DNA of 64,000 bases from assembly GCF_030684315.1 (NCBI RefSeq), contig NC_081386.1:14145914-14209913 (forward strand), given 5' to 3'. The position numbers and the translations under genes are program-made. Below the pieces are notes generated by a model, which saw only the letters and a program-made list of their open reading frames with translations, was not told where the DNA came from and did no database searches. Every line of letters starts with the position of its first letter. Position 1 is the stretch's first letter. This document shows positions 2,062 to 60,183 of the stretch, in pieces. Source of the stretch: Stegostoma tigrinum (taxonomy: Eukaryota).

Positions 2062-2152
2062 AATAAAATGTGAGGCTGGATGAACACAGCAGGCCAAGCA
2101 GCATCTCAGGAGCACAAAAGCTGACGTTTCGGGCCTAGACCCTTCATCAGAG
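2062..2152 (-). mobile_element. Short Penelope-like terminal fragment with intact minimal hammerhead motif (2123-2150)
   Basis: Reverse complement reads CTGATGAAGGGTCTAGGCCCGAAACGTC; flanked by 9-bp duplication AGTTAATTT (2053-2061 and 2153-2161). Confidence 0.85.
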
Positions 2153-2731
2153 AGTTAATTTGCTACTTTGTTGCAAATTTACATTTCCTCAAGTGGTATG
2201 CATCACATTGTATGCTTCATCAGAAATCAGTATAGCCCTCAGTTTGGTACCATCTGCAAACAGTTTGGTAAGAGTTATTCGTTCCTAAGTCCAAAACTGG
2301 AATGTAAATAATGACGAACAGGGGGAGAGGTCAGCTGCTTAGGCAGCGTCAGTGGGGAAGAGAGACAAAAGCTTAGCTTTCAAGTCTATAAGGACAAAAA
2401 GGTTCTTGCCACAGTTTGAAATTTAGCATACTTGTATGTGTTGCCTAATTAGTATGCGATGGAAAAGCTCCCTCAGCGCGTCACTTTTCACAAATATTCA
2501 AACTCTGGCGTACAAGTTTGATAATGTGAGTTTCCAATCATCACGTATCCTAAAGTAAACTGAAAACGACAAATGCATGAAAAGTTTTGGAGTAATTGCA
2601 CGGAAGATCTGGTTTCCCTGGGAGGTGCTGCCTTGGTATTTCCTACAAATCCGAGCTGGTTATTTCACAAAAAAAACAAAAGGCTGTTCACTGACAGGTA
2701 ACACACAACGCACAGTTAAATAACTAAATAC

Positions 2732-3050
2732 CTCCTGGAGCTCGGGGGAAGCGCAGTGATGACAGGGACACGGCGGCCTTAGCAGGATGGACACTACAAA
2801 CCAGCCAGGGCCTGGGCTCTAGGCTTGGCTCCCCTCGAGACATCTCACGTCAGGAAGGCACCCGCCGCCATTAGCCCCTTCCCCAGGCTCCGATCTCCGG
2901 CTCCAGGACCACAACAAACCCACACTCCATTGGTCCTTCCCCCACTGCCAATCACCAAACTAGGTCCTACATCGGCACCAAGCTGCCCCCCTATTGGTGC
3001 CGGCTCGCGGGGCACACTGGGACTTGTAGTCCAGCCCGATGCCCCGGCTC
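2732..3050 (-). promoter_or_regulatory. GC-rich housekeeping-type promoter and probable non-coding first exon of a minus-strand gene extending off the left edge
   Basis: ZNF143/THAP11-type motif ACTACAAGTCCCAGTGTGC (minus strand, about 3012-3030); CCAAT boxes near 2928, 2948 and 2992; CRE-like TGACGTGA at 2845-2852; donor-like GAG|GTATTT at 2732/2731. Confidence 0.6.
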
Positions 3051-3960
3051 AGAGGTAACAAGGTGTCGAGCTAGCAGCGGGAAAGCTGACATTTCGGGTC
3101 TAGACCCTCTGCTCAGACACGCGCATTCCTCTCCCAATGATCCACTTCACTTACCCTCCTCTTCCGACCCCAAAGAGCTCCAGCTCCTTCTTCACTGAAA
3201 GCAAAATACTGCAAGGGGCTGGAAATCTGCAACAGTAGCTGGAATTTCCTGGACAAACTCAGCAGGTCTGGCAGCCTCTGTGGAGAGAGAAACAGAGTTA
3301 ACACATCAAGTATTAACTCTCCTTTCTCTGCAAAGATGCTGCCGGACTTGCTGAGTTTCTCCAGCAACTTCTGTCTTTGTTACACACATGTTTTCCCCCC
3401 CCCCCCATGATCACTCACTCACTCACTCACTCTCCTACACCAACTCAAAGAGCTGTAGCCCCTCCTTCAGGGAAAACAAAATACTGCAGACGTTGGAAAC
3501 CTGAAATTAACACTGAAAATTGGATTCTCAGAGCCCTCTCCCCACCCCCCTCTCTCATGAAACGTCTAGGCCCGAAATGTCAGCTTTTGTGCTCCTGAGA
3601 TGCTGCTTGGCCTGCTGTGTTCATCCAGCTTCACACTTTGTTATCTTGGATTCTCCAGCATCTGCAGTTCCCATTATCTCTGATCACAATTTTAACCTCA
3701 TTGCGAAGCCTCTTCCAGGGATGCCTAAGCTGAAGAAGTTAACCTCCTCCCTCAGGACCAACCTCAGGGAATCTCCCTCTCCTCTATCCATCTTCGGTCC
3801 ACCTCCCCCTCTCTCCCTATTTATTTCAGAACCCTCTCCCCATCCCCCTCTCTGATGAAGGGTCTAGGCCCGAAACGTCAGCTTTTGTGCTTCTGAGATG
3901 CTGCTTGGCCTGCTGTGTTCATCCAGCTTCATGCTTTGTTATCTTGGATTCTCCAGCATT
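3050..3960 (+). mobile_element. Cluster of Penelope-like terminal repeats, including a tandem pair with hammerhead motifs (degenerate at about 3553-3582, intact at 3852-3879)
   Basis: Two direct copies of ...GAAA(C/T)GTCAGCTTTTGTGCT...GGATTCTCCAGCAT about 300 bp apart; older related termini at 3055-3375. Confidence 0.8.
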
Positions 3961-3984
3961 TTTGGTGTTGTGTGTTTCTTAGAA

Positions 3985-4520
3985 AAATAGAAGATAGGAG
4001 CAGGAGGAGGCCATTCAGCCCTTCGACCCTATCTGCCATTCATCATGATCATGGCTGATCATCTGACTCAATAGCCTCATCCTTAATAGCTTTCTCCCCA
4101 TAACTTTTCATCCCATTCACCCAAGTGCTATGTCTAGTCGCCTTTTGAATACATTCAATATTTTAGCATCTACTACTTCCCGTGGTAATGAATTCTACAG
4201 GTTTACCACTCTTTGGGTGAAGAAATGTCTCCTCATGTCCATCCTGAATGGTCTACCATGAATTGTTAGGCTGTGACCCTTGGTTCCGGGCACACCCACC
4301 ATCAGGAGCATCCTCCCTGAATCTACCCTGTTAGAATTTTATAAATTTCCCCTAATTCACCTGAATGCCAGCATAAAAAAAATACATCTTAGTCAATCTG
4401 TCTTCATATGTCAGTCCCACCATCCCTGGAATCAACCTGGTAAACCTTCACTGTACTCAATCGAGAGCAAGTGCATCCTTCCGCAGAAAAGGAGACCAAA
4501 GCTGCACACAATATTCTAGC
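3985..4520 (-). mobile_element. CR1-type LINE 3' fragment
   Basis: Reverse complement resembles the CR1 ORF2 C-terminus and 3' end (ttcttcacccaaagagtggt, gaatggcctcctcctgctcct), similar to the 21.7 kb copy. Confidence 0.75.
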
Positions 4521-5755
4521 TTCACCATTAAATATGAGACAGATTAATATCTGGACAGTTGGTCATCCTGCATGGTACTGAGGGAGTGTGCTGGACTTTT
4601 TAGGGTGCCATATTTGAGATGAACAGTGAAATGGAGATCCAGTTTGTCTTCTCCAGTGGATGCAAAATATCCCACAGCTTTTATTTTGAAGAAGATCAGG
4701 CTAGGTTTTACAGTTGCCAAATAACAAAGAATAAAAGGTCAATAGTAGAAAGGTCAACCTTTTGGTGAATTAGTAGTAACCCTACATCTGACCAGAAGGC
4801 CCGGGTTCAAGTCTGCCCTGTTCCAGAGTTTGTGCCATTGAACAGGTAGTTTAAAGATAGCGAAAAGGGTGAAAGATTCCTATCTAAACCTCAGATTATG
4901 TGATCATATTTTGTCAATTTGACAACATTGCTACTAATCATCAGAAGCCTAACATATTATTTTAAGAATGAAGGTCCAATAGCAAAAATACTTTCATGTC
5001 AATTGCAAGATATCTTGGAATTGGGACGTCTATAAACTGATGATAATTTCATTACAGGCTGGTGACAGAAATGTCACATTGACGATCAGCCGGGGGGAGA
5101 GGGGGTACAATGCCCCCTGGTGGCCTTACTGTAAAATACATTGTTTGGTGCATACATGGGCTCCCACAATCTGAATTACACCCACGTTGAATGAGCCTAT
5201 AGCTAGGAAAGTAAAAAGGGCACATGCACATCTAACTTCTATGTCTGGAGTAGGCAAAAAAAAGTGTCCTTCGTGCACAAATTGGCTGCTACATTTCCTT
5301 CTATTGCAACAGAAACTGTATTTTAGGAAGTGCTATGGTGTGTGCTTTATTTGTCAAAGGATCTATATCAATGCAAGTTTTTCATTTTTCTTTCTGCTTC
5401 TACACATGTTCTCATGACTCCAGATGGAAAGGCTACAAGTGGATGTCAGGACACGATACCTTCCCCAAGTTCACCGAATAAGCTTTCCCCGGAAATGCAC
5501 AAAAGCAGAAATTGCTGGAGAAATTCTGCAGATCTGGCAGCATCTGCGGAGAGAGAAGCAGACCGAGCACTTTGAGTGCGGTGACCCTTCTTCACAAGAT
5601 TTTCCAGCAGTTGCTCTCTCACGTCATATATAAGTCATAGTAATATACAAGCAGGAGTAATCCATTCAGCTCCCGGAGCCCACCATGCTATTTGATACAA
5701 TTATGGCTGATCTGATTGTGGCCTCGTCATTACTTTTCTACCTAACCCCATGATT

Positions 5756-5977
5756 GAGTTTGCACATTCTCCCTGTGTCTGCGTGGGTTTCTTCCAGGTG
5801 CTCCAGTTTCCTCCCACAGTCCAAAGATGTGCAGGCTGGGTGGATCGGCCATGCTAAATTGCCCGTAGTGTTTATGGGTGTGTGGGTTATATGAGTCTGG
5901 GTGTGATGCTCCAAGGGGCAGTGTGGACTTCTTGAGCCGAAGGGCCTGTTTCCACACTGTAGGGAATCTAATCTAAT
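5756..5977 (+). mobile_element. 5'-truncated HE1-type SINE
   Basis: Near-identical to the 3' two-thirds of the 9605-9926 copy; (AATCT)n tail. Confidence 0.85.
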
Positions 5978-7599
5978 ACATAGCAATGATCTGAAAAGGC
6001 AAAAGGCATTGTAATTAAATTTGTACACTCTAGATGCCTACAATGCATCCTTATGTTTACGGCAGGGCAAATATTCACAATGTTTCCCACCATATAGGTA
6101 TCCATTTAATGCTAGATAAAGTTGTCCGATGTTGATGATTTTCTTAGCTGTTATTTGGCCGTTTTTAAATATTATTTGATGGGATTTGCCAGGTCAGCAT
6201 TTTTGCCTATCCCGGCTCGCCCTTGGGAAAGAGGTGGTGAGCTATCATTTTGAACTGCTGTAGTCCATCTTGGGCAGATACACCTAAGAGCTTTCAGAAA
6301 CTCAATACTTTGTTTGGTAAAGGAAGGATGTTGCAGTTGGATGTCATTCTTGCTTTAATGGGTCATTTGTGATTCCCATCAGTGGATTTCACACTTATTA
6401 AACAAGATTTCCTTTTCAAAAGTCCGAATAAGTGAAACAAATTTTAGGCGTAATTCACATCAGGTAGAATACAACAAACTTTACTAAATCCAAACAAGAA
6501 AATTGCTATTGTGGTGGAATAAACTTTGCATTCAACCCCTCAACATCTCTCTCCAGTGCTATATATGGCATAATATGCATTATCGTTTTCGTAACTTGAC
6601 ATTATTAGTCCCTTAGTGCAGCAGCTAATAAACATTCACTAAATTCTGATTAATTTAGGAGTGCAGAAATAACACTAGTTTAGCACATTTTATTCAGATT
6701 TGAACTTTATGCATCAGCAATTCAAGAAGAACCTCATAATAATGATGTTTGCACACTTCAGAGAAGTTTATTTTCCTTGGCCAGCTCACTTCGTCTGGCC
6801 AAATACCATTTACTCAGGCCATTGCAAGGTAGTGAATTAAAATATCAGCTGGCGAACAGTTTCATATATTTGGCTCCAGTGAATGATCATTGAATATTAG
6901 CAAACAAGATAAAATTAATGAAACCAATTACTTTCCACTTCAAAAATATGTACAATAGGATGGCCTAGTTACTGCCAATGTTAAAAACATTAGTACACTC
7001 TGGGTACACGTTGCAAGGAGAGTGTTAGAGAGCAGGCCAGATCCTCACAAAATATTTTTAGAAGGTAGCCTACAACCTATTTTTTTTCTTATTTTAAAGG
7101 CAGATGTGAAGTGAGTGTTCTGAATATGATACAACTGGTCAAAACACTTGGTTTTAAGCAAAACAGAAATTATTTGAACACTACAGTTGAAACATGAACA
7201 AGAGAAAGTGGGATTGAGAATAACTTAACTATTGGAAAACTTAACTGACCCAATACAGCAAATGAACTAATGAACTGCTCCAGTATAGCAACATCCCATA
7301 AACACACCCCTTGGGAAAAAGGCAAATTCAAACAAAGACTCCTATAGGCAGGAGGGAACAACATCCAGAGAGAGATTTCAGAGAAAGTCAGAGGAATCCT
7401 TTACTGAAGCCAGCCAAACTTCTGGACTCCAACATTTTGTGACTGCTACAGCTAAAGCAAACTGGAAAAAAAAACTGAACTAGGAGATCTGGTCACTTCC
7501 CCTTCAATCGTTAAGCAGTTTGTCTCTAACCAAGTTTTTATGACTGCGAAGTCTCTTCAAACAATGCCCACTTTGAAGAAGTTCTCTGTCACCCTCAGA

Positions 7600-10075: not shown

Positions 10076-10323
10076 GGGAGGTGATGGCCTAGAGGTGGAA
10101 GCAGATCGAAGATGGATAGAGGAGAAGATAGGCAGAGAGGAGACAGACAAGTACGAGAAAGTTGCCTCTATCCATCTTCGATCAGCCTCCCCCTCTCTCC
10201 CTATTTATTTCAGAACCCCATTCCCCTCCCCCATTTCTGATGAAGGGTCTAGGCCTGAACTGTCAGCTTTTGTGCTCCTGAGATGCTGCTTGGCTGCTGT
10301 GTACAGCTCCACACCTTGTTATC
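10073..10323 (+). mobile_element. Penelope-like terminal fragment with a short inverted arm and degenerate hammerhead (10237-10264)
   Basis: CTGATGAAGGGTCTAGGCCTGAACTGTC; GAAGATGGATAGAGG and CCTCTATCCATCTTC form inverted arms. Confidence 0.75.
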
Positions 10324-10475
10324 CCCTTCCATTGTTAAGCTGTTTTAGCCCCTAGCTGCCTAGACACTTGGCACCTCTGCCTTTACAACCTCTCTTCAAA
10401 AAAAACCAAGCACAAGATAACCTTTTTAAAGTGATAGTATCATCACGAAATGTTTTGATAACATTTCAAAAATTT

Positions 10476-10505: not shown

Positions 10506-10653
10506 CAGTATTTGATATTTCTCCACTGCTTTCATTCTGTCTGGTTTCACAAAAACAAAGAAAACAACGGGTTACAGCTGCTAATGGCAAAAGATATAAA
10601 TTACATAAATTGCATTTGAAAGACTTGTGAAAATCAGATTCCAATTATGTTAA

Positions 10654-10891
10654 GAGATAATGGGAACTGCAGATGCTGGAGAATCCAAGATAACAAAGTG
10701 TGGAGCTGGACGAATACAGCAGGCCAAGCAGCATCTTAGGAGCACAAAAGCTGACGTTTCCGGCCTAGACCCTTCATCAGAAAAAAGATTTTGATTTTTT
10801 CTGATGAAGGGTCTAGGCCCGAAACGTCAGCTTTTGTGCTCCTAAGATGCTATTGGCCTGCTGTGTTCATCCAGCTCCACACTTTGTTATC
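10654..10891. mobile_element. Palindromic Penelope-like terminal insertion with two hammerhead motifs (10753-10780 minus, 10801-10828 plus)
   Basis: About 90-bp near-perfect inverted arms; 14-bp TSD TCCAATTATGTTAA (10640-10653 and 10892-10905). Confidence 0.9.
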
Positions 10892-10944
10892 TCCAATTAT
10901 GTTAAATTGACTTAACCACCACCCAAATTCTGTGGCATAACCCA

Positions 10945-11495: not shown

Positions 11496-11656
11496 GTATG
11501 CTCCCTTCTTCTCCCACAGACTGCCTGCATCGATCGTAAATTATTTCTTTTTGAAAGCCTCCTCCTATTTCTCTATTACTGTTTTCCTCACCAGTTTTTG
11601 GTTATATTTGGTCCAGATTCCTTTTCAACTCTGAAGTTATCTGTCCTTCAGTTAAT

Positions 11657-11864
11657 AAAATGTGAGGCTGGATGAACACAGCAGGCCAAGCAGCATCTCA
11701 GGAGCACAAAAGCTGACGTTTCGGGCCTAGACCCTTCATCAGAGGAAGGGTCTAGGCCCGAAACGTCAGCTTTTGTGCTCCTGAGATGCTGCTTGGCCTG
11801 CTGTGTTCATCCAGCCTCACATTTTATTATCTTGGAATCTCCAGCATCTGCAGTTCCCATTATC
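11657..11864. mobile_element. Palindromic Penelope-like terminal insertion; intact hammerhead motif at 11715-11742 (minus)
   Basis: Perfect inverted arms of about 85 bp; 17-bp duplication TCTGTCCTTCAGTTAAT (11640-11656 and 11865-11881). Confidence 0.9.
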
Positions 11865-13468
11865 TCTGTCCTTCAGTTAATTTGTTTTATACTTAATTGT
11901 ACATTTCCTTTCCAATGATTATCCTCGTCCTAAAGATATTATGATCAGCATTACCCAAGTACTCTCTCACTGAACCCTCTTCCAATTCACCATTTCATTC
12001 TCTAGAACCAGATCTGGCACTGTTTTCTTCCGCAGTTGGCTAAAATACACCGAGTTAGGAAGTTTTCTTGTATATCATTCAGGAATTCCAAACACTTTGC
12101 CTTTTAAAATTTACTAGCCTTGTCTATATTAGGATAATTGAACTCTCCCAGTGTCACTACTCTGGAGTTTTTGTATCTTGATAACTTGCCAATAAATAAG
12201 CCAGACTATCTTTTACCTGTTATTTTGTGGCAATTAAACAATAGCTCTTTTATTGATCATTAATTCTGACCAAACAGGCTTTGTGTTTGTCCTGTCAACA
12301 GTATCTTCCTCTAGTGTTACATATTGCACACTATGTATCATCATTTTTATCATTTTTTGCTTTTAGTTCCTCAGCATGCAAACTAATAATGCATTCATTA
12401 AATTCTGATTCATTTAGGATTGCATACTTAATGCAAGCTTGGCACATTTTATTCAGATTTAATCTTGAGTTTGTGGTTTGTTTGACGTATTTATTGTCGT
12501 TTATAAACCCTGTACAACTGATAGGTTCTCTATAGAGAATACAAACTTGCATGTATTACACTGAAAATGAGATTCCTGTCAAAACAGTAACCAAGTGCTA
12601 ATGTAACATCAGTCAAAATTTCACACAATACTGTCACATCTAATGCAATGTCAATACCATATCAAAAATAATCAATTTTTAATCACACATTCTAAATAGT
12701 TAATCATCATTTGTCATACTTCTGCAAGACCACTTAAATTCTTGTATTTTTCTACTTGAATAAGCTGTCATTTTGAGAAGCATTAGGCTTAGTAACTGTT
12801 TATGCCTTCTGTTCTTCCAAAACGTTATCTATCATTGTCAGAGATGTTCCTTTTGCACAATGTACGTCATACTGATGTTTGATCATTTTGTGCTCTCTTG
12901 AAGGGATAAGGGTGCTCACAGCTGACATTGAGAAGAGGCCCCCTGAGAAATCTAGTGGATCAAAATTGGCAAAAACCCTAACTCATGCTATACAATTGAA
13001 CTTGCATTGTTCACTGGGGATTCACAAGATCAAGCTGCAGTGCTATCAACAAACCACTAAAGCAACCAGTCACATGATAGAATTCTCACAGTCATCCATT
13101 CAAAAATACAAAACACAAATAATCAAATCACACTTTTGAAACAATTACATAGACCAAAATAAAGATTGGGGCGTACTCCTGTGCTGAAGGTAAAAGATGA
13201 AATGCCATGGAAAAATGGAATTTCTTTTCTAGTTATTGAAAACAAAAAATCAATATTAAATCATAATGGAGACATTACCAACATTCCACGTAGTTTTGAG
13301 TCCTAGGTTGGGATTTTCAGCAACAGTTTCAATCCAGATCATGGTCACAAACTATACTTGTATTTCGTTGAACTGACCTTGATATTTTCTAGGATTTCTA
13401 ACAACCATGTGACATCTGAACTGATTTTGCTGATTGCTAAATCTGGTTTGGACTTTGGAGATTGTGAT

Positions 13469-17499: not shown

Positions 17500-18422
17500 T
17501 TTGGATGTGAACATGGGAAGAATGGTTCGTAAGTTTGCAGATGACACCAAAATTGATGCTGTGTTGGACAGCAAAGAAGGTTACCTGAGAGCACAACCAG
17601 ACCTTGATCAGATTTACCAATGGGCTGAGGAGTTGCTGATGGAATTTAATTTAGGCAAATGTAAGGTGCTGAATTTTGGAAGGGCAAATCAGAGCAGGAC
17701 TTATACACTTAATGATTAGGTTCTGGGTGTGTTGCTGAACAAAAAGACCTTGGAGTGCAGGTTCATAGTTCCTTGAATGTGCAGTTGCAGGTATACAGGA
17801 TAGCGAAGAAAGCATTTGGAATGCTTGCCTTTATTGGTCAGTGCGTTGAGTATAGGAGTTGGGAAGTCATTTTGCGGCCACTTTTGAAATACTGCGTGCA
17901 ATTCTGGTCTCCCTGCTACAGGAAGGATATTGTGGAACTTGAAAGGGTTCAGAAAAGATTTATAAGGATCCTGCCAGGATTGGAGGGATTGAGCTATAGG
18001 GAGAGGATAGGCTCAGGCTATTTTCCCTGGAGCACCAGAAACTGAGGGGTAAGCTTATTGAGGTTTATAAAATAATGAGGGGCATGGATAAGGTGAATAC
18101 CCTTTTCCACAGGGTAGGGGAGTCCAAAACTAGAGGGCATAGGTTTAAGGTGAGAGGGGGAAGATTTAAAAGGGATATAAAGTACAACCTTTTCATGCAG
18201 AGATTGATGCATTTGTGGAATGATCTGCCTGAGAAAGTGTTGGAGGCTGGTACAATTACAATATTTGAAAGGCAGCTGGGTGGGTACATAAAAATGAAGG
18301 CTTTAGAGGACTATGGGCCAAATGCTGGCAGATGGGACTAGATAAATTTAGGATATCTGGTCAGCATGGATGGCTTGGACCAAAGGGTCTATTTCCATAC
18401 AATATATCGCTATGACTCGATG
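17500..18422 (+). mobile_element. CR1-type LINE 3' fragment (RT C-terminus, frameshifted)
   Basis: 'KFADDTKI', 'YCVQFWSP', 'LERVQKRF', 'KTRGHRFKV' in successive frames. Confidence 0.9.
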
Positions 18423-18851: not shown

Positions 18852-19309
18852 CAGAGATAATGTGAACTGCAGACGCTGGAGAATCCAAGATAACAAAGTG
18901 TGGAGCTGGATGAACACAGCAGCCAAGCAGCATCTCAGGAGCACAAAAGCTGACGTTTCGGGCCTAGACCCTTCATCAGAGAGGGGGATGGGGAGAGGGT
19001 TCTGAAATAAATAGGGAGAGAGGAGGAGGTGGACTGAAGATGGATAGAGGAGAAGATAGGTAGAGAGGAGAGTCCATCCTCCCCTGACTGACCTATCCCC
19101 TCCCCACCTCCCCACCTACACTCTCCTCTCCACCTATCTTCTCCTCTATCCATCTTTGGTCTGCTTCCCTCTCTCTCCCTATTTATTTCAGAACCCTCTC
19201 CCCATCCCCCTCCCTGATGAAGGGTCTAGGCCCGAAACGTCAGCTTTTGTGCTCCTGAGATGCTGCTTGGCCTGCTGTGTTCATCCAACTTCACACTTTG
19301 TTATCTTGC
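18852..19309. mobile_element. Palindromic Penelope-like terminal insertion with two intact hammerhead motifs (18952-18979 minus, 19214-19241 plus)
   Basis: About 180-bp inverted arms; 12-bp TSD ATCAATTTTGAA (18840-18851 and 19310-19321). Confidence 0.9.
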
Positions 19310-23411: not shown

Positions 23412-24594
23412 ATTGACTAGAAAAGTTGATGAGGGTCGAGCTGTGGATGTAAGGCATTTGATAAAGTTCCCCATGGTAGGTTCATTCAGAAGGTCAGGAG
23501 GAATGGGATACAGGAGAACTTAGATGTCTGGATACAGAGTTGGCTGGCCAACAGAAGGCAGCGAGTGGTAGTAGAAGGAAAATATTCTGCCTGTAAGTCA
23601 GTGGTGAGTGATGTTCCACAGGGCTCTGTCCTTGAGCCTCTACTGTTTGTAATTTTTATTAATGACTTGGATGAGGGGATTGAAGGATGGGTCAGCAAGT
23701 TTGCAAACGACACAAAGGTTGGAGGTGTCGTTGACAGTATAGAGGGCTGTTGTAGGCTGCAGCGGGACATTGACAGGATGCAGAGATGGGCAGAGAGGTG
23801 GCAGATGGAGTTCAACCTGGATAAATGCGAGGTGATGCATCTTGGAAGGTCGAATTTGAAAGCTGAGTACAGGATTAAGGATAGGATTCTTGGCAGTGTG
23901 GAGGAACAGAGGGATCTTGGTGTGCAGATACATAGATCCCTTAAAATGGCCACCCAAGTGGACAGGGTTGTTAAGAAAGCATATGGTGTTTTGGCTTTCA
24001 TTAACAGGGGGATTGAGTTTAAGAGTCGTGAGATCTTGTTGCAGCTCTATAAAACTTTGGTTAGACCGCACTTGGAATACTGCGTCCAGTTCTGGTCGTC
24101 CTATTATAGGAAAGATGTGGATGCTTTGGAGAGGGTTCAGAGGAGCCTTATCAGGATGCTGCCTGGACTGGAGGGCTTATCTTATGAAGAGAGGTTGACT
24201 GAGCTCGGACTTTTTTCATTGGAGAAAAGGAGGGGGAGAGGGGACCAAATTGAGGTATACAAGATAATGAGAGGCATAGATAGAGTTGATAGCCAGAAAC
24301 TATTTCCCAGGGCAGAAATGGCTAGCACGAGGGGTCATAGTTTTAAGCTGGTTGGAGGAAAGTATAGAGGGGATGTCAGAGGCGGGTTCTTTACACAGAG
24401 AGTTGTGAGAGCATGGAATGCGTTGCCAGCAGCAGTTGCGGAAGCAAGGTCATTGGGGTCATTTAAGAGACTACTGGACATGCATATGGTCACAGAAATT
24501 TGAGGGTGCATACATGAGGATCAATGGTCAGCACAACTTCGTGGGCTGAAGGGTCTGTTCTGTGCTGTACTGTTCTATGTTCTATGTTCTATGT
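23412..24594 (+). mobile_element. Young 5'-truncated CR1 LINE with a 312-aa open RT C-terminal frame and (TTCTATG)n tail
   Basis: ORF 23565-24503: 'VPQGSVL', 'KFANDTK', 'RPHLEYCVQFWS', 'FFTQRVVRAWNALP'. Confidence 0.95.
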
Positions 24595-29757: not shown

Positions 29758-29980
29758 GATGTGAAGCTGGATGAACACAGCAGGCCAAGCAGCATCTTGG
29801 GAGCACAAAAACTGACGTTTCGGGCCCAGGCCCTTCATCAGAGATGAAGCCTCTCTGATGAAGGATCTAGGCCCGAAACGTCAGCTTTTGTGCTCCTGAG
29901 ATGCTGCTTGGCCTGCTGTGTTCATCCAGCTTCACACTTTGTTACCTTGGATTCTCCAGCATCTGCAGTTCCCATTATCA
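29758..29980. mobile_element. Palindromic Penelope-like terminal insertion with hammerhead motifs (29814-29841 minus, 29855-29882 plus), inside an older SINE
   Basis: About 85-bp inverted arms; same family as 10654-10891. Confidence 0.88.
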
Positions 29981-32369: not shown

Positions 32370-33000
32370 ACCGGTGTTGCACTGGGGTTAGCAAAGTCAG
32401 AAGTCACTCAAATACAGCAAGCGTACAACGCAAAAGAAGACCTTATATTGTAGATATTAAATGCCAGAAGTCACATGATACCATGTTCCAGTCCAACAGG
32501 TTTATTTTAAATCATAAGCTTTTGGAATGCAGTCCTTTGTTCAGGTGAAGTGACAGAGCAGCACACAGTCGCAGAACGTATCCGCAGAGAGATCAATGGC
32601 AGAGGGATGAATACATCATACAAATGGCATGAGTGGAGTGTCGAATAATGAGTCTCTGCGGGTGATCAAAAGTGTCAGACGGGGTGAATAAAATGTCAAT
32701 GGCTGAATAACAAGTGAAAGGATGATAATCTGTTTAAATGAGGCAGAGAGATCATTACAAAATATTAAAACTAAGGTGGTGCTGGAGACAAACCAAATGA
32801 CTGGAATAATAGAAAAGACAAAAGAACCTGTAAATCGGGAAAAAAAAACAGAAGTTGCTGGAAAAACTCAGCAGGTCTGGCAGCATCTGTGAAGAAAATA
32901 TCAGAGTTCATGTTTCTGGTCCAGTGACCCTTCCTCACGACTCTTGGAGTGTAGCCCCGTTTTCAGGTGAATTGACAGAGCAGCACACAGACACAGAATC
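32370..33000 (-). mobile_element. Nested older Penelope-like termini of two other families
   Basis: Decayed hammerhead-like cores on the minus strand (CCTGAACAAAGGA...TCCAAAAGCTT at about 32517-32547; GTGAGGAAGGGTCACTGGACCAGAAACATG at about 32909-32938); 'gacagagcagcacacag' is repeated. Confidence 0.55.
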
Positions 33001-37186: not shown

Positions 37187-38670
37187 CTGGTTACAAAAGA
37201 GAATCAGACCAATTTATGTGTTCAATAAACATAGTAATTGTTTTCAGCAAACTTTAAGTTGTGACAAAGCAGTTTTAAGTGAACATAATTGTTGTTTATT
37301 CTCTGAGACCGGTACAATTTTGCACAGATCAAAAGGTTCTGTTTCCAAAGTCCAGTTCCCATTATTTGTCTGGGTGAGACATGTGAGTGAGGCTGTGGAG
37401 AAGGAGACAATGATGACAAAGAAAGGGAATAAATACATAAGATCAAAAAAAATTGTGTAAATTGGAGGGGATTGGGACTATTGAAAATTATATCAGAAGT
37501 AACAAAATCATGAGTTAAATTGAAAGAACTGAAATAAATTCAATATTCAGAAGTTTACAATTCTGAAAGTGAAGAATAGGCAGAAAAAGAGATGAAGTAG
37601 CTATCAAAATCAAGGACCTTTAGTGGATAAGTGAAGTAATCAAACATAAGGAACTAAGCTGCAAATTAACTACATTCGTTGCAATGCAAAAAATACATAA
37701 GGTGCAAATTTCTCCTACAAATGGGAAGAGTATGCAAGGAGATGGAAGTTATTTTAACAAGTTATTTCAATCAACCCAAATATAAACTGTGAAAACTCAA
37801 GTAATTTAGAGTCTGAGTTGGCAAATAGAATGTGAATCATTGCAGCTGGCAAAGGCAGTGTTAATTTTATCACGGTATTCATCAATACCCCTGTCAACTA
37901 ATAAGAAATGGAAGTTGGAGCACTCTGGAAGAGAGCACACACATAATGATCAAGTTCCATGTGATCCTGTAGTTACATACACACAGGACCAGATTTTGGT
38001 GAGTTTACTGCCAATTCCTAATTGCTCTGCAGTAAGTGATGGTGAGCTGCCTTTTTAAATTGCTGCAAAGATTGGGTATAGGGCCAATCACAGTGCCGTT
38101 AGGAAGGGAAATCCAGGACTTTGACCCAGCAACAGTGAAGGAATGGAAATATACTTCCAAATTATATGTGGCTTGGAGGGGAACTTACTTGTATTGATGT
38201 TCCCACACAACTCCTCCCCTTAGCTTTCTGGGTGGTAGATGTCATGGGTTTGGAGGAGCCCTTGTGAGTTATTGCACAGCAGTATACACTCCTATTAATG
38301 TGCAATGGCAGTGAAGGGAGTAAATGCTGTAAGTGATGGATGGGGTACCACTGCTGTTTGACTATATTCATTTAGGCAAATGAAGAATATTCCACCACTT
38401 TCCTAATTTGTGACTTGTAGATGGTAGTCAGACACTGGGGCGGCAAAATGTATATAACCCACTGCAAGATTTCTAGCCTCTGAGCTGCTCATGTAGCCAT
38501 AGTTTTGAAATGCCTGCTTCAGTTCACTTTATGATATTATAACTCCTGGGTTTCTGAGTAACACCACATGATCTCACATCCATGCTGTATAAGTAAAACT
38601 TCCAACAAGTGGAAGCAAATTTAAAGAATTCTAATGGAGTCCTGCAAATTATAAAGATTCTGATTCTTAC

Positions 38671-38843
38671 CGTAATTAGGACGGTCAAGTCAAACACGTT
38701 CCAGCCACTTTTCCAAAAATTTACAAAATCATAAAGCCACCTGAGAATGATTTCAGATGTCAAAACTGAAAGAATGCACCAGTCGATGATCACTAACATG
38801 GTCATTACAGCATGGAACTTTGGTCCTGGTTTGTCAGCAACAT
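38671..38843 (-). CDS. CATSPER2: CATSPER2 coding exon 4 (S2-S3)
   Basis: (D)VADKPGPKFHAVMTMLVIIDWCILSVLTSEIILRWLYDFVNFWKSGWNVFDLTVLIT; FWKSxWNVFD motif; 173 bp. Confidence 0.96.
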
Positions 38844-39673
38844 CTGAGAAAGAGTCATTCAACATAGCATCATAAAAAACTTACATCAAGCGACAAAAAC
38901 ATCTACCTGAAGTCCTGCACTTTTCTTCAAATGGTACAAGTTTTTAACTTTCGTTTATTTTGTTGTACAAATAGTAAGCCAGATTTTTTAAAAAAAACAT
39001 TGAAATGTTCCATTAATTTCCACCGTCACAACTTAATATAGAATGTAATTGAACATAAGCTGCTATTTTCAAATCTTTCAAAATTATAAATAACTTTTGG
39101 AATGATGTGGCCTGCTGATAAAATACAACAACGAAACATGTTGAAAAGTGACCAAGGAATCTTTCTCATGACAGCAAAAGCAACAAGAGGATTTGTCCTG
39201 GTAGCTTCATAGGAAACTGCACACATTATAAGTATCTGATTATTAATATATTGTTTGTGGGGAAATGGGGAGATATGCTAGTGAGGTGTGTGCTAATATC
39301 CATTTCTATAAATGAATAGAAAATTGATCCAACCAAACTACCTCAATTGCACCAGTGCTAAAGGTGGTAAATTTCTATCATTTTGAAATAAGATCTACAG
39401 TTCTGGTCTACAGCACTTGCTTCCCTGAATTTGAAATGGGTTTTTTTATTTCTAACCCACAGAAAGTTTCTGTGGAATGATGAGGAGTAATATTATCTAC
39501 GTGTATATTGCCAATGAGATTATAATTGGAATTCTTCACATCACGCTATTTGGACAAAGACATAATTCCAATTGTAACTTCATCAGTTTCTGTTCAGTTT
39601 TACTACTTCTGTGTTTGTCTATATTGCCAGCATCTTATCTACCATAAAGGAGAAGAAACTAGCTTTCTCTTAC

Positions 39674-52199: not shown

Positions 52200-52218
52200 C
52201 CAATGGAGAGGCGCCACA
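52200..52218 (+). promoter_or_regulatory. ERSE-like element (NF-Y/ATF6)
   Basis: CCAAT-GGAGAGGCG-CCACA, i.e. CCAAT-N9-CCAC(G/A), about 140 bp upstream of the PDIA3 ATG. Confidence 0.7.
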
Positions 52219-52357
52219 CTCCGGCGAAGGGGGCGGGGTTGTTTTCCGCCGGGGCTCCGGCTCCTTCAGTTTGTCCGTGTCTGCCGATCAGAGGCCGGAG
52301 AGGAGGCCGTCACTCACTCTCGTACACAGAGACTCTCACCTCCCATCCTCGCTCGCT

Positions 52358-52491
52358 ATGATTCGCCTCCTGCTCCTCGCGTGCACTGTTGGCGCGGGCC
52401 TGGCCAGCGACGTCCTCGAGCTGACCGACGACGATTTCGAGGATCGGATCGGGGACCACGAGCTGATCCTGGTGGAGTTCTTCGCCCCCTG
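52358..52491 (+). CDS. PDIA3: PDIA3 (ERp57) exon 1: signal peptide and start of thioredoxin a domain
   Basis: MIRLLLLACTVGAGLASDVLELTDDDFEDRIGDHELILVEFFAP(W); donor TG|GTGAGG. Confidence 0.97.
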
Positions 52492-52659
52492 GTGAGGGTT
52501 CGGGTTGCTGCTGTCCTCGGGGAAACCGAGGTTCCGTCTGACTCCCATCCCCGCTCTTATTTTTATTCTGTTTTGTTCCGACGGCGCGGGTCGTGAATTG
52601 GTGGAACGAGAGAGTCCCGTCGTCGAAAGGTTCAGCCGTTGCGGACTTGTAGGCCTTAC

Positions 52660-52930: not shown

Positions 52931-55429
52931 GTGGCCACCCGCCGCAGCGGTTCAGACCGGAAACTATGGGCACGCGCCCCCGTGGCTCTAGCTGATTGGA
53001 TCCCGGGGGCAGGGTGGGCATCGTTGATTGGTTGATTGTTGGCCTGCCCCCAACCTGGGTGGGTGGAGACTGAGCCCCTGACAACGGGCGAAGGGCCACC
53101 GGACATTGAACACCACCTAATATACAAGGTGCTGAATGACATGAAATCTTAGGTCCTCTTTCCTAGCCGTGTCACTGGGCGACTGCCTGTTGTGGTTATT
53201 GTGCTGTGGTAATTGGCAAGTGGTTAGCATAACTCTTGTTCCTAGCAATTAAATTTAGATTTTTTTCACTTGTCTCCTGAAGAGTTTTGACTCCAGTCCA
53301 CTTGGTCCGCTATGTCTGGCTTGCATCCATTTGAATAATAGAAGTGTAGTCGTTGCTTGTCGCATAGCTAGCCAAGTGGATCTGTTGCAGAATTCCTTGT
53401 CCTGTGTTTTGTTAGCTATGTGTGAAGAAAATCTAAAGTTTTGACCCAGCAAAAATGATTGTTCCAAATGAATTGTGTGAACATGTTCTTGTGTTGCATA
53501 TTCTTTTATTCATTGTAATAGGAAAAGTGTGAGCCCAACCCAAATCTAGTGATTTAAAAACCCAAAGAACTGCAGATGCTGTAAATCAGGAATAAAAACA
53601 GAACTTGATGGAAAAGCTCAGCAGGTCTGGTAGCACCTGTGAAGAAAAAAAATCACTTAACGTTTTGGTTCCAGACCTGAAATGTTAGCTGACCTTTTTT
53701 TGTTTAAAGGTGCTGCCAAACAGCTGAGCCAAATCAAGTGACTTTCTGACCAATCTCCAAACTCCATTTTAAGTGATCAAAGCTTGGTTATACAAAAATA
53801 ACTTAGTTGTCCAGTTAATGGAAATGGATATTTTACAGAAATTGTGAAAACCTTACTATAACCCAGCTTGCTTGCTTTGTCATGTTGACCATCGTATAAA
53901 TTAAAAAGCACCAAGATTGTGATTTAATATCTGGATTATAAACATGAAGTAGCAAAACTCAATGTAGGTAAACTTCAGAAACCTAAGTACAAAGTTACCT
54001 GGACTACCAAGTATGCAACAACAATAGTCATGGCTGTCATTTTTCAGACAATTTTTGAATATAGTATGAATGATTTATCTTTTTTCTTTTGAATTAATCA
54101 ATACTCTGTTTTTGCACTTTCTCCCCCTCTCTGAGCAAGTTTTCAGATGTATTTTAATTTCCTTGACACACATCCTGCCCTAGTGCTGGTTGTGTCTTAT
54201 CTACTCGAGTACTACAACTCTCATGGAATGTTCTGATCAGTGTTAAAACAGCAAGCACACCTCCTGCCAAACTCTTTTTTTGCAATCTGACAAGGATTTG
54301 AGCAGTTGTCCTTTACATATTGTAGGTTCTTATTCCTGTCTCATTTGTGAAATCATGCGAGGAAAAGAATATGACTATGCAGATTGACTAAAGGGTCAGC
54401 CTATTATGTGGGAGTTTTGGAGCACAGTTTAACAGAACCTTCTGCTTGGCCTAGTGATTGCTGATAGTATAACGTTAGATGACCAAAACATTTTATTTAA
54501 ATTGTAGAATACTAACTTGAGACTGGAAGTTTCACTACCTTTCTTGCATATTCTGACTTTTGATTAAAGTTACTGCACACAACTCAAATTTTGTATTGAG
54601 TTGTCACTATTTGGTTATTTATTACGTGTACACCAGTCATTGATTTTAAAATCTTGTCATGATTTAAGTTATTCAACAAACTGTTCTCCTCCAGTAACAT
54701 GGGATGTGAACCTTAATTGTGAAATGCTATTAATACTGATGCCAAAGGATGTCATTTTAGGGTATGGATGAATTCCTAAAATGGTTTCTTTCTGTCTTGC
54801 ACTTTGTGTTAATACTGGATGCCAGAAGTGGGCACGTGTGAATACTGAACTTGTCAGTGGTTATTAACACATGTTTTAGAAGTCTGCCAGTGATGAGTTT
54901 CTTTTACAATACTCTTTCTGCTAATCCAAAGTATATTGGTGGATTTCTCACTGCATGTGATTTATGATTGAGCTTCTGTTACTCTGGCAGTGCAGTTTTG
55001 GAATAAATTGTGTTCCTAGTCATAACTTTAATTTACAAAAAACTGTGGCTGATTAGTAATATGAATTGAAAGATTGAAGATATCCTGGCACATCAGTGCC
55101 CTCACCCTTCCTTAGTCTCCTGTGTAATTCCAATGCATGACAGTTATGGATTCAGTGGACCATCTACATTTTGAACTGAATGTGAGCTGGTAAATTCCTA
55201 TCTCATGCACTCAGAGTTGGGTGATTCACAGGATTTGTAGTAATCAGGGAGCTAGCTGCCTGTGATTAACACTGCCTCTGTGCAGGATGCTGGGTGCTTG
55301 AATTCAGCAAGACGTAGTAGAATATTGATAATTAGAAATCTCCTCTTCCTAATTTCCCCTAGTTGAGAGTTAATAGCAGAAATAAATGGTAGTACTTGAG
55401 GAAGGTAGACACCATCAAATCAGCTACTC

Positions 55430-56050
55430 CTGTAATCCAGTTCTCCATCCTTTAATGACTTCTGTGCCTGAGCCTTGAACTGAACACTTTTTTTCTAGTT
55501 TCTCTCCTCTGTTTATCTCCATGTGACCTAGCTTCTGATCCCTCGAACCTGTTCCAATTAATCTGTTGACCACCTAACTTTGCTTTCCCTGTTCCCACGT
55601 CGGCCGATGATGTTAACAGTTCGCTGTCTTTAGGTATCTGTCCTTCCTCTAATTCTGCTGTTAGTATCCACCTTGTCAAAAAAGTCCCCTGACCCAACTG
55701 TCCTTGCAAACTGTCATCCCATCTTCATGCTCCTTTCCCTTAAATTCCCGAGTGTGTTATTGGCTGTAGATACCTATCCATCTTTCCCAGAGCACCATGT
55801 TTGAAACAGTCTATGATCCATTTCCTTGAGCAGTGGAAAGCTCTTGGAGCGTCACTTGCAATTTTTATATGAAAAATGTACTTCCCTGGCTTTCCTGGAC
55901 CTGTCTTGCAAATGATTGGCATGTTTGACCAGGCCATTGCCTGCCGGTGTTTCTGTACTTCTGTCATCCTGCTTGGAGTGGCTACACTCGCTTGGTTCTG
56001 TTTTCAGCTGTCTGTTTGTAGCTAGAGAATCATTCCCAGTGGCTGCCAGT
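55430..56050 (+). mobile_element. Decayed L2-like LINE RT fragment
   Basis: Scattered 'cccatc...tc', 'agatacctatccatctttccc' and 'tgctggttctg...ttttcagctg' pieces typical of L2 ORF2; no open frame. Confidence 0.4.
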
Positions 56051-57637
56051 ACCATTTGCCTTTGGTATACCCCCAGGAATCTATCCATGACCTGATTTTT
56101 TTTAAAAAATAAACTTCTCAGAATGGATTGCTAAGTCTAAGATATTTGATTCTCAGTAATCATAGCATTGCCAGTGATTGAAAACAGTGGAGAGTTGTAC
56201 AGAGTTACTTTCCTGCTAGGTATGAGTTCAGGTTTGTTACGTCATTGCCTGAGGTCAAGTTTGACTGCTTCCTAACAGGACAGTTTCTGGAAGCCAAAAG
56301 AAATAGAACAAATGTTGTAAAAGCTAAGGGCATTGAAGCAACTTTGTGTATCATTTTATTAATGGTGTTATGAGTATAGCTGAAAGACTAGTTCTCACTC
56401 CAGTTGGCATTAATTGTGAGCCACATTGAAATTTAATGTTGCAACTTTGGATGGGTTTGATTTCCTTGGGGGTTAATGTTATATTTGAAATGATTTGGCC
56501 ATGATAGCATAACCTTGCAAGTAAGAAGAGCTAAATTTTCTTCTGGCCTACCTTTTAGAATATACATGTTTTTGTTAACCTATAGCAGTTATGAGAGACA
56601 GCTATATTAAACATTAACCTTATTTTTAAAAACTCATAAATGTGCAGCCATGGGATTCTATGCATCACTGAAATTGGTTGTGGCATGTCCTGTAACTAAT
56701 TGAGCCAATGTGAGTAGGGGTGGGGAGTAGAGGAGGTAGAGGTAGAACTCCTATTTAAGTAATTTCAAGTCTAGTTGCTCATAATTTTTTTAACAGGCTG
56801 CAGGACAGACTGATTCGCAATTTGCTTAGAACACTAGAAACTAGAATCTGTAGTACAAGGCTCCCTGAAATGGGGATAGTGATTTCAGTTGGGGCCATGG
56901 GCGAACAATTTGGGATTGAAAGCTCTGAGGCAATAATGCCTGCCAAGGGACCTGTATGGTATAATAATTGTAACCATACTCCAACAGGAGTCCCGCTTTC
57001 CCAAACTCTCCTCTTCACTTGGATTGTGTCACTTTTCAAACCTTGAAATGGGGTCACTGGCTAGAAAAGACTTGGAGGACTGCTGGAGAATGGTGTAACG
57101 TGGACAGTAAGTCAGTCCATCAAGCCTGTGCTGATAAAGATCTGAAAAAAAAAACAGTAATATCAGACTTGAAATTCCAATGTTAGCCATCTTTCTGTCT
57201 CTACAGTTGCTGCCAGACCAGTTGTTTCACCAGCATATTTTGTTTTTATTTCAGTTGTCCCGCATCCACAATACTTTTACTATATAAGCCTGTGCTGATT
57301 CCTTACTGTCTGTACTGTCTCACTTTTAAGCAGTTGTTGAATTGCCAATTGTATTTAATATGAATTCTCTCAAGTGTGATATAAAATTTCCAATTCAGCC
57401 ACTTCGTATAGTAAAGTTCCTTTTGTGAATTACCTTACTGATGCTTTATAAATTAATAAGCTACCAATTTATAGATCCTTGGAAACCATTTGTTGTTGTT
57501 TACCTTTTCAAAACCCTCAGTTGTGGAGCCTTCCATCAGGTTGCTGTTTGTAATAACAATCCAGCCTAAATGAGTGCAATATTTGTATGATCTGCTTATA
57601 CATATCATGTTCTCTAATCACTGTTTACTATATGCAG

Positions 57638-57716
57638 GTGTGGCCACTGTAAACGGCTGGCCCCGGAATATGAAGCTGCTGCTACGCGGTTGAAAGGAAA
57701 AGTTCCTCTGGCGAAG
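57638..57716 (+). CDS. PDIA3: PDIA3 exon 2 (WCGHC active site)
   Basis: (W)[26 protein letters not shown]; 79 bp with AG/GT borders. Confidence 0.98.
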
Positions 57717-58535
57717 GTAAATTACTGAGAGTATATCTGCATGGAATGTGTAATAGCAACTCAGTATATTTTAATGGTTGCCAACTTTAAATCAAAATGT
57801 AATAAACCAGAAGCCTCCTATATAGCTGCAAGCATTTTACCAAAGCTTATTTTCTTCACTGTTATACAACTTTGTATTGGTAATCAGTAGTAATTACACA
57901 TGCATTTCCTTCAGGTTCTAATTTTGTTTGCTTGTGTAACCAGAGCGATGTATGCTAACTTATCTAAAGTTTATTGAATGCTATAACAGTGAATGAAATT
58001 GAAATTTAGCTATGCAATGCTGTAAAATGCTGAGATAACAAGGGCTGCATTCACCTAGTGTTGGTATATGACTGAAATCAAACACAATTGGAAATGAAAG
58101 TTGAATACTTTTGGCGTACCCAGCAGAGAATTAATTTCAAACCACAGTGTCAACTTGACTCACTCAATCTTTTTCAATCTTTAGCAAACGTAGACCACAT
58201 TTTGGCAGGAGGATAGGGAAACGTAAGGCCACTTAAAGTCAGGAAGAGATTGTAACTGCACTGAAACAGGATCACTTCAGTGACTGAGTAGTGATTTTGA
58301 CCTTGGAAGCTTGAATGATGAGCATTCAAGAAGGCAGCTCTATTTACCACCTTCTCAAGGACACTTAGGAAGACACAGTTAGCTAGCAATGCTCATGTCC
58401 TGTGAATGAATCAAATCAAAATACTACAGAACTTTGCTTGCAAGTTGGGTTCACTTTGAATACCAGACTCTTAATTTGTTCCCGAATTGTGCGTGTTCTG
58501 AGAAGTCTCATCTGTAGCCAGTCTTGCAATGGCTT

Positions 58536-60183
58536 CAGAGAGAATGGGAACTGTAGATGCTGGAGAATCCAAAATAACAAAAGTGTGGGGCTGGATGAGC
58601 ACTGCAGGCCAAACAGCATCTTAGGAACACGAAAGCTGATGTTTTGGGCCTAGACCCTTCATCAGAAAAGGGGGATGGGGAAAGTATTCTGAAATAAATA
58701 GGGGGAGAAGGGGAAGTGGACTGAAGATGGATAGAGAAGTGGAGAAGAGTGTATGGGTGTTGGGGGGGGGGGGGGGGGTGCGAGATAGGTCAAGGGGGAA
58801 GGATGAGGTTGGTAGGTAGGAAATGGAGGTGTGGCTTGAGGTGGGAGGAGGGGATAGGTGAGAGGAAGAACAAGTTAGGCAGGTGGGGATGAGCTGGGCT
58901 GGTTTTGGGATGCAGTGGGAGGGGGGGGGGGGGGGGGATATTTTGAAGCTTGTGAAATCCACATTGATACCATTGGGCTGCAGGGTTCCCAAGCAGACTG
59001 AGTTGAGTTGCTGTTCCTGCAATCTATGGGTGGCATCATTATGGCACTTCAACCCCCTGCCCCCCCCCCCCCCCAAAAAAAAAGAGACGGACACACAGAC
59101 ACACGTCAAGGAACGCCGTCAGCGTGTCTCCTGCATTTCCGGCACCTCACCCCACCCCCACAGTAACCACCAAAAGAGCTTCTCCCTCGTCCTCACGTTA
59201 CACCACCACACGCACACGCACACACACAAAAGCTCTGGATACGACGCATCATCCTCTGACACTTCCGCCATCTACAATCTGACCCCCACCACTAAAGACA
59301 TATATTTCCAACCCCACCCTCCTCTGCCTTCCAGAGAGACGACTCTCTTGTCCGTTCCACACTCCCCTCCAACCCCGCCACACCCTGCACTTCCCCTGCA
59401 ACTGCAGGAAGTGCTACACTTGCCCCCACACCACCACCTTCGCCCCCATCCCAGGCCCCAAGATGACTTTCCACATCAAGCAGATGTTCACCTGCACATC
59501 TGCCAATGTAGTATACTGCATCCGCTGTATCTGGTGTGACTTCCTCTACATTGGGGAAACCAAGCGGAGGCCTTGGGGACTGCTTTGCAGAACACCTCTG
59601 CTCGGTTCGCAGTAAACGGCTGCACCTCCCAGTCGCAAACCATGTCAACTCACCCTCCCATTCCTTAGATGACATGTCCATCCTGGGCCTCCTGCAGTGC
59701 CATAATGCTTCCACCCGTACGTTGCAGGAACAGCAACTCATATTCCGCTTGGGAACCCTGCAGCCCAATGGTCTCAAGTGGATTTCACCAGCTTCAAATT
59801 CTCCCCCTCCCCTTTCCCCCTGACACTGCATCCCAAAACCAACCCAGCTCATCCTCGCATGCCTAACCTGTTCTTTCTCTCACCTATCCTCTCCTCCCAC
59901 TTCAAGCCACACCTCCATTCTCTAACTACCAACCTCATCCTGCCCCCTTGACCTGTCCATCCTCCCCGGACTGACCTATCCCCTCCCTACCTCCCCATTC
60001 ATACTCTCCTCTCCACCTAGCTTCTCCTCTATCCATCTTCGGTCTGCCTCCCCTCTCTCCCTATCTATTTGAGAATCCACTCCCCATTGCCCTCTTCTGA
60101 TGAAGGATCTAGGCCCGAAACGTCAGCTTTCGTGTTCCCTAGATGCTGCTTGGTCTGCTGTGTTCATCCAGGCCCACACTTTA
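58536..60183 (+). mobile_element. 5'-truncated Penelope-like retroelement with GIY-YIG endonuclease remnant, 3' terminus and inverted 5' copy
   Basis: 'CNCRKCYTCP', 'FTCTSANVVYCIRC', 'LYIGETKR', 'FAEHL', 'EQQLIFRLGTLQPNGL' (about 59395-59780); hammerhead at 60097-60124; inverted copy at 58536-59050; degenerate TSD TCTTGCAATGGCTT / TCTTACAACGGCTT. Confidence 0.92.

Follow-up and report, generated by a model that had tools for sequence, protein, structure and literature searches.

Minimal hammerhead motifs of a putative Neptune-type Penelope-like element in Stegostoma tigrinum as a probable record of twin-primed insertion

Background

Why does a single stretch of 64,000 nucleotides in the genome of Stegostoma tigrinum (assembly GCF_030684315.1, contig NC_081386.1, positions 14,145,914 to 14,209,913; the whole of it is called the window below) carry about 14 copies of a minimal hammerhead ribozyme motif, and do these copies act as ribozymes? 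A first-pass annotation made from the letters of the window had attributed the motifs to a young Penelope-like family, predicted a very large population in the genome and proposed that they cleave as dimers. In this work we have analyzed the copies in the window and in the genome. The window copies are probably 5′-truncated insertion debris, twin-primed on one RNA, and the motif is a minimal type I hammerhead sequence located in the pseudo-long terminal repeat (pLTR) of a putatively Neptune-type Penelope-like element.

The link between hammerheads and Penelope-like elements is already known; the present case stands out by its scale, and its copies offer a natural archive of how the element inserts. 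About 9,000 minimal hammerheads have been counted in Xenopus tropicalis and about 4,000 in coelacanth (PMC4209133, Cervera and de la Pena 2014), and 14,255 retrozymes in axolotl (bioRxiv 10.64898/2026.07.22.740005). The best matching mechanistic work concerns the Poseidon element of Anolis carolinensis, whose protein, a predicted dimer, cuts and extends both DNA strands from two internal start sites, and whose hammerhead needs protein, is dispensable for insertion and has no RNA-seq reads ending at its cleavage site (PMC11167929). Hammerheads in 5′ untranslated regions (UTRs) can drive cap-independent translation (PMC13725137; see also PMC6155905 for further background). Comparisons with published systems refer to the accessible parts of the cited papers.

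Copy and pair statistics were obtained from 188 copies mapped in eleven 100-kb stretches, which add up to 1.1 Mb or 0.03% of the genome. Positions in the element are counted from the predicted cut site (position 0).

Results and discussion

The hammerhead motif and its copy number

Fourteen places in the window match the 28-nt motif with at most four mismatches, which confirms the first-pass observation. The six consensus copies, at 2123 (-), 3852 (+), 10801 (+), 11715 (-), 18952 (-) and 19214 (+), are exact matches, and the variants at 10753 (-), 29814 (-), 29855 (+) and 60097 (+) are present as well. Degenerate copies were found at 3554 (+), 10237 (+) and 58638 (-); the one reported near 3087 really lies on the minus strand at about 3092-3116, and a copy at 11740 (+), its core interrupted by a junction, had escaped the first-pass annotation. 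Core, stem II and GUC triplet are all intact in 7 of the 14. The G10.1-C11.1 pair is broken at 10753, one stem II pair in each of the copies at 29855 and 60097, and core letters at 58638, 10237 and 3554.

The described anatomy was correct in its hammerhead grammar and in the 4-bp stem II, which is preceded by a bulged A; stem III is an exact loop-less palindrome, ACGU, not a near-palindrome, and stem I has 2 bp. A descriptor with palindromic stem III matched the window 7 times, whereas 50 shuffles gave 0.1 matches on average and 1 at most; the 1.1-Mb sample had 64 matches against 0-1 per shuffle (10 shuffles). When the window was scanned with Rfam at E up to 1, no hammerhead family was found among 28 matches, none of which reached its gathering score; they represent unrelated hairpin families, the microRNA-like ones coinciding with inverted pairs of the element. 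Rfam being blind to the motif, standard RNA annotation misses it, as had been anticipated.

The motif resembles the minimal hammerheads of PMC4209133 in being of type I without loop 3, in the palindromic 15.2-16.2 positions, the extra base between 9 and 10.1 and the G10.1-C11.1 pair, and also in its presence in both pLTRs and its occurrence mostly as solo copies or opposite-strand pairs of truncated copies. It differs in uniformity, the published motifs being highly variable, and in stem length: stem II has 4 bp against 7-8, and the 2-bp stem I, in which position 2.2 is C or U with the pair kept, compares with a typical 4-5 bp (2 bp in Drosophila virilis).

The very large population foreseen from the window does exist. 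The exact 28-mer occurs 92,176 times in the 3.2-Gb genome (reversed-pattern control, 0) and a pattern keeping the core, the stem II ends and the triplet 114,869 times, so that the identical copies of this one sequence are about ten times the largest published count found (PMC4209133). The proposed density of one motif per 5 kb holds for the window (1 per 4.6 kb) but not for the genome, which has closer to one motif per 10 kb and one intact motif per 28 kb; 42 motifs were counted in 400 kb of the sample at up to four mismatches, and the window has about twice that average. The element family accounts for 78,374 of 1,100,000 sampled bases (about 7%), which extrapolates to about 300,000 ribozyme-covering copies genome-wide. 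This population probably consists mostly of insertion debris and not of a standing set of active ribozymes.

The carrier is a Penelope-like element

Assignment to a Penelope-like family is borne out by the reverse transcriptase (RT) motifs, the Cys linker, the GIY-YIG domain and the pLTR anatomy. The hammerhead is placed in the pLTR, and the AUG of the open reading frame (ORF) lies 18 nt past the predicted cut. A genome search with the broken frame upstream of the 60097 copy returned 195,758 first-look candidates. Natural frames of longer copies contain RT motifs DKG, YIDD and a GMAMG-type motif, the Cys linker and GIY-YIG with CCHH residues; the Pfam matches to GIY-YIG (E=5e-4) and RVT_1 (E=5e-3) are both below the curated cut-off. 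No Pfam match was obtained with the broken element frames of the window, and the RT frame had no match among PDB sequences at E up to 1. Every ORF copy observed is broken by frameshifts or stops.

The linker C-x4-C-x2-C is found in the window (59283-59615) and in locus L045. A CX2-5CxxC linker between RT and endonuclease marks Neptune and is common to Nematis (PMC8557442). Since the linker fits this definition and the host is a vertebrate, we designate the element as putatively Neptune-type.

Two near-complete units, at loci L131 and L133, are composed of an inverted truncated arm, a pLTR with hammerhead, the ORF, in frame from the +18 AUG, and a second pLTR. Each has two same-strand hammerheads 3.5-3.6 kb apart and a 13-bp target duplication. 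Together with the sampled pairs, these units display the hallmarks of endonuclease-containing (EN+) Penelope-like elements: the pLTR partial tandem, the inverted truncated copy, a tail of 34-35 nt and the target duplication. The layout is that of the canonical EN+ unit, with a one-end tail (PMC3846280, PMC8557442); target duplications are 8-10 bp in the canonical elements and 9-17 bp here. Loci L132 and L139 were considered as further tandems and rejected, their upstream copies being separate insertions.

Nearly all head-to-head pairs have exactly one tail

The 3′ ends of the 188 copies cluster at about +65 and about +100, 34-35 nt apart, the interval corresponding to the Penelope tail. More than half of the copies (102) fall into 51 head-to-head pairs, and 49 of these pairs combine one tailed with one tail-less arm; two have part tails and none has two tailed arms (P=5e-13 versus free choice). 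All five pairs of the window obey the rule. Target duplications of 9-17 bp flank 38 of the 51 pairs, compared with 5 of 400 mismatched flank pairings. The two arms of a pair are also alike. Their length classes are coupled (38 short-short, 10 long-long and 3 mixed pairs; P=5e-8), their subfamily letters agree at 515 of 571 positions against 54% at random, and rare variants are common to both arms in 9 of 167 cases against 40 of 4031.

These features suggest the following course of events. The element protein, modeled as a dimer in Anolis, would cut the two strands of the target with a stagger of about 14 bp; each target 3′ end would prime reverse transcription on one and the same RNA, one at +65 and the other at +100; and both cDNAs would then be end-joined head to head. 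Ribozyme cutting would be dispensable for insertion, cut RNA supplying at most a percent or so of the insertions, and only with protein help would the RNA cut and shed a short leader before the AUG.

The Anolis Poseidon element PAc provides the closest parallel: its hammerhead lies at the border of pLTR and ORF, two start sites set a tail of 30-40 nt, and copies arise from uncut RNA (PMC11167929). The element described here differs in its Neptune-type Cys linker and in the AUG, which follows the predicted cut by 18 nt but precedes it by 26 nt in Poseidon. The genomic one-site-per-arm rule and the coupled arm lengths counted here are not reported in the accessible text of that paper. A literature search for shark Penelope hammerheads, a strict one-tail rule or 5′ ends at the ribozyme edge found none; it was incomplete and did not cover Repbase or the supplements of PMC4209133.

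Both priming sites (about +58 to +65 and about +91 to +100) end in a similar TTATCT motif, 35 nt apart, which may be a per-subunit signal. Among contigs of run X3, opposite-strand joints between L131:5941 and L131:5976 link a tailed end with a tail-less end (18 and 17 contigs); these tail-to-tail junctions may reflect repeated insertion of the element into its own end.

The 5′ ends of copies accumulate at the ribozyme edge

Among 114 copies that reach position -26, 57 stop by -36, and only 3 of the remaining 57 stop between -37 and -120. The stop rate is 0.0455 per nt from -26 to -36 and 0.0006 upstream, a 75-fold difference. The young subfamily alone displays the same accumulation (28 versus 1); the older subfamily is mostly short (18 versus 2), though long old copies may be under-detected. 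Genome-wide pattern matches agree, with 8,407 for ends at -32 versus 464 at -48, the counts for ends at 0, +2 and -48 being inflated by subfamily variants. Loose contig ends in one sequencing run of unknown kind accumulate at +100, +65 and -28; they were not counted as independent because that run may be the source of the assembly. No such accumulation was found in the accessible text of PMC3846280 or PMC8557442.

We find it fairly probable that one template in two, roughly, has its 5′ end 1-8 nt upstream of the core, presumably at a transcription start, and that the enzyme runs off there, leaving arms of 100-135 bp. An RNA 5′ end is proposed at this place because both arms of a pair stop together and the C-rich sequence continues upstream. 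In the Drosophila virilis Penelope leader the order is transcription start, short intron and hammerhead (PMC2377424; PMC4209133). We also considered that an intron might end at the AG near -52 and rejected this, as no copy of the random sample ends there.

The monomer is predicted to fold best into a 6-bp hairpin, from -28 to +1, in which CUGAUG pairs with CGUCAG and the core is buried (-11.4 kcal/mol, 73% of the ensemble); the hammerhead stems score -3.6 kcal/mol. Folding models penalize such junctions, so the inactive hairpin stands as a prediction. The naked monomer RNA would thus be locked in an inactive form, in agreement with the inactive monomers and weak dimers of PMC4209133 and with cutting only in the presence of protein in PMC11167929.

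The hairpin opens another explanation of the 5′ ends, namely that the enzyme stalls or drops off after it or at the C-rich tract, and that the joints found at the cut site (described below) arise by pausing at the hairpin foot and self-pairing of AGCT, with no cleavage involved. Both hot spots do sit at the feet of the closed hairpin. Blunt joining of arms stopped at +2 would yield the same joint as two arms that begin at 0. Joints on the 3′ side, at +5 to +16, are common too (7 of 51 pairs), and one-sided ends at 0 are just about twice as numerous as those at +2 or -8. A hairpin in the template, however, stalls a polymerase on entry, at its 3′ side, whereas the main peak is on the 5′ side; C-runs persist upstream, where ends are 75-fold rarer; paired arms stop together, which points to the template; and there is no excess of ends at +2. 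We regard drop-off as possible but doubtful.

Possible traces of cleavage at the predicted cut site

Most copies span the predicted cut site, and copies with sequence on both sides of it came from templates that were uncut there. We looked for an accumulation of 5′ ends of solo copies at the cut site and found none, only 5 of 153 copies ending within 2 nt. Genome-wide there are 728 perfect palindromic joints whose centre is the tetranucleotide past the cut, whereas two nearby palindromes of four letters have 59 and 152; the cut-site-centred type is represented by 1 of the 51 sampled pairs, with a 13-bp duplication. One-sided ends at 0 were estimated from the first 100 listed rows of 6,684, counted by hand (40 insertion variants, 34 palindromic joints and 26 others), as at most about 1,700. 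The corresponding figures are at most about 750 of 1,841 at +2, where about 59 of the first 100 listed rows were recurrent variants, and 1,121 at -8.

The palindromic joints at the cut site may be a trace of cleavage, to which we give somewhat less than an even chance; they remain a hint because an enzyme that pauses where the closed hairpin begins would yield the same joint. A bolder and rather unlikely version holds that the 5′ end of the RNA is only a few bases away from the hammerhead, which would be a cap-proximal switch opened by the element's protein and cutting off a 33-nt leader ahead of the AUG, that the 728 joints would be fossils of cleavage in vivo, and that the tailed 135-bp arm would be a self-sufficient mini-element. 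Such an arm, with start, ribozyme and both priming sites, would beget more hairpin pairs. The joints offer a precise, testable signature for the cutting of Penelope ribozymes in vivo.

Conservation of the core

The core is better conserved than its surroundings: none of 12 non-CpG core columns varies by more than 10%, compared with 20 of 80 others in 109 motif-covering copies (rank test P=0.009, Fisher P=0.06), a result favoured by the selection of copies through similarity to one natural reference. Changes within the motif are confined to N7, loop 2, position 11.4 (U-G to U-A) and position 2.2 (C-G to U-G), with pairing kept. An extra A between A9 and G10.1 (position -21) is present in 107 of the 109 copies, and the ACGU of stem III has decayed chiefly through CpG change.

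Alternatively, the motif may have ceased to be a ribozyme and be conserved because it serves the element in protein binding, as a promoter or in priming. The template mobilised at L131 had a broken stem II in its last pLTR, several stretches 3′ of the ribozyme equal the core in invariance, and hammerheads may simply ride along on Penelope-like elements (PMC8557442). The subfamily changes within the motif, however, hit only positions that a ribozyme tolerates, and a second family retains the core and the ACGU palindrome with wholly different stems I and II; the loss of ribozyme function therefore seems improbable to us.

That second minimal-hammerhead family, unrelated in appearance, is represented by four copies in 1.1 Mb (blocks C2, C5 and C20; e.g. 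G000:C5, about 40,055,700), with a 3-bp stem I, a 6-bp stem II and a bulged U. An older, decayed repeat family related to the element, with a longer stem II variant, was noted at 32841-32940 (-), 3232-3315, 5498-5581 and 53559-53674. Two older subfamilies differ at the cut site, one by an extra A after the triplet and the other by a GUU-type triplet with other stem I letters, and would be useful natural variants for cleavage tests. A conserved upstream ORF starting from the AUG of the core was rejected because one third of the copies carry A at N7 and so lose this AUG.

Points that weigh against twin-primed debris of a ribozyme-bearing element

Several results speak against the picture drawn above. 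Solo copies are less well explained by twin priming because a target duplication was found in only 12 of 78 tested. Part of the resemblance of paired arms could stem from gene conversion, and the pair statistics cover 0.03% of the genome. The three-way comparison at L131 is symmetric (12, 10 and 11 sites), the outer arms sharing just one multi-base stem II change. In vitro, the two start sites are used without strand difference (Frangieh et al., PMC11167929). No intact full-length ORF was found in 60 long-frame loci scanned, the longest open frame having 804 amino acids. As regards the RNA, its start is read from genomic copy ends and a match of the pyrimidine tract to an initiator is trivial, while cleavage, element protein and RNA ends are all predicted from the genome sequence. 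Selection by one natural reference biases the sample toward conserved cores, and nearest-neighbour energies disfavour hammerhead junctions generally.

Self-priming as the origin of the pairs

Inverted pairs could also arise by self-priming, when a single cDNA or an antisense RNA folds back on itself, the tail being left by resolution of the hairpin. Such a model has been proposed in PMC3846280 (Arkhipova et al. 2013), which leaves the mechanism undecided, and the close likeness of paired arms as well as the joining of 17 of the 38 short pairs via overlaps of a few letters would fit it. Fold-back would, however, fix which arm is longer, whereas the longer arm is the tailed one in 20 pairs and the tail-less one in 19, with 10 ties; the tail-less arm exceeds its partner by hundreds of bases in several pairs and by about 3.5 kb in L131. 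Since either arm may be longer, a single fold-back is disfavoured. Copying of a tail-less arm could never add a tail, and 21 of the 38 short junctions are blunt or contain inserted letters. We consider self-priming quite improbable. In canonical EN+ elements the tail is described as optional or often one-ended and self-priming has been proposed (PMC3846280, PMC8557442); with exactly one tail in 49 of 51 pairs, the counts obtained here favour twin priming. These insertion scars thus bear on the open questions of the origin of the inverted pLTR and of the one-sided tail.

Copies are not arranged to act as cis dimers

The proposal that the motifs cleave as dimers found no support: close pairs oppose strands, the monomer is predicted to fold into an inactive form, and cut-spanning copies came from uncut RNA. 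The five close pairs of the window are head-to-head on opposite strands, so that each transcript carries only one sense ribozyme, and the sole same-strand pair (3554/3852, 298 nt apart) has a broken first core. Thus the copies are not arranged to act as cis dimers. A large standing set of ribozymes that cut as dimers, whether the two partners share one RNA or belong to two RNAs paired via the ACGU palindrome, is very unlikely: the loop-less palindromic stem III and the bulged A match the dimer-type motif of PMC4209133, intact-type cores are numerous, and tandems exist at L131 and L133 and, as one short case, in the window, but 60 of 73 neighbour pairs closer than 1.5 kb are on opposite strands (13 on the same strand), neither the 1.1-Mb sample nor the window has two intact cores on the same strand less than 5 kb apart, two closed monomers (-22.8 kcal/mol) are predicted to be favoured over a double hammerhead (-5.5 kcal/mol), few copies end at the cut site, and published minimal-hammerhead dimers cut weakly in vitro (PMC4209133).

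Animal non-LTR retrozymes are likewise pLTR-derived non-coding hammerhead repeats (bioRxiv 10.64898/2026.07.22.740005), and the 3524-3959 copy resembles them as a two-unit, internally deleted tandem. Retrozymes form head-to-tail arrays with at least two intact ribozymes, whereas the present copies occur almost exclusively as solo or head-to-head insertions.

Features of the window

The copies of the element within the window are collected in Table 1.

Table 1 Element copies in the window (HHR, hammerhead motif; TD, target duplication)
Feature	Position	Strand	Details
Solo short copy	2062-2154	-	Intact HHR 2123-2150; tail-less 3′ end; 5′ end 4 nt before core; TD about 9 bp
Degenerate hammerhead remnant	3092-3116	-	The copy first reported near 3087
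Internally deleted partial tandem	3524-3959	+	Broken HHR 3554-3581, intact HHR 3852-3879; between them ORF start (to about +197), then jump into 3′ UTR
Decayed copy	10091-10305	+	Broken HHR 10237-10264; preceded by short inverted 3′ UTR fragment 10091-10143 (-)
Head-to-head pair	10653-10892	.	Tailed minus arm, HHR 10753-10780 (stem II pair broken); tail-less plus arm, intact HHR 10801-10828; both arms end at 5′ edge of core; TD 14 bp
Head-to-head pair	11650-11868	.	Tail-less minus arm, intact HHR 11715-11742; tailed plus arm, core cut at 11745; TD 15 bp
Head-to-head pair	18852-19308	.	Tailed minus arm, intact HHR 18952-18979; tail-less plus arm, intact HHR 19214-19241; arms extend 114 and 151 nt upstream of cut site; TD 12-15 bp
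Head-to-head pair	29759-29979	.	Tail-less minus arm, HHR 29814-29841 (stem II variant, pairing kept); tailed plus arm, HHR 29855-29882 (stem II mismatch); imperfect TD, judged by eye only
Long head-to-head pair	58535-60190	.	Tailed minus arm 58535-59051, decayed HHR 58638-58665; tail-less plus arm 59111-60190, HHR 60097-60124 (stem II mismatch); imperfect 12-bp TD, judged by eye
Broken ORF 3′ end, two frames	59283-59823	+	Cys linker C-x4-C-x2-C, GIY-YIG-type motif LYIGET, CCHH residues

Apart from the element, the window contains a CatSper-subunit-like exon (matches to CATSPER2/4) at 38524-38880 (-) and a PDIA3-like first coding exon at about 52330-52495 (+), divergent from each other; both point to a vertebrate host. 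The 58535-60190 insertion is located downstream of the first PDIA3-like exon and is likely intronic, with its plus arm in sense. An open RT frame of 356 codons, which we take to be of CR1/L2 type, extends over 23433-24503 (+) (Pfam RVT_1, E=5e-14), and another RT stretch is found at about 17716-18341.

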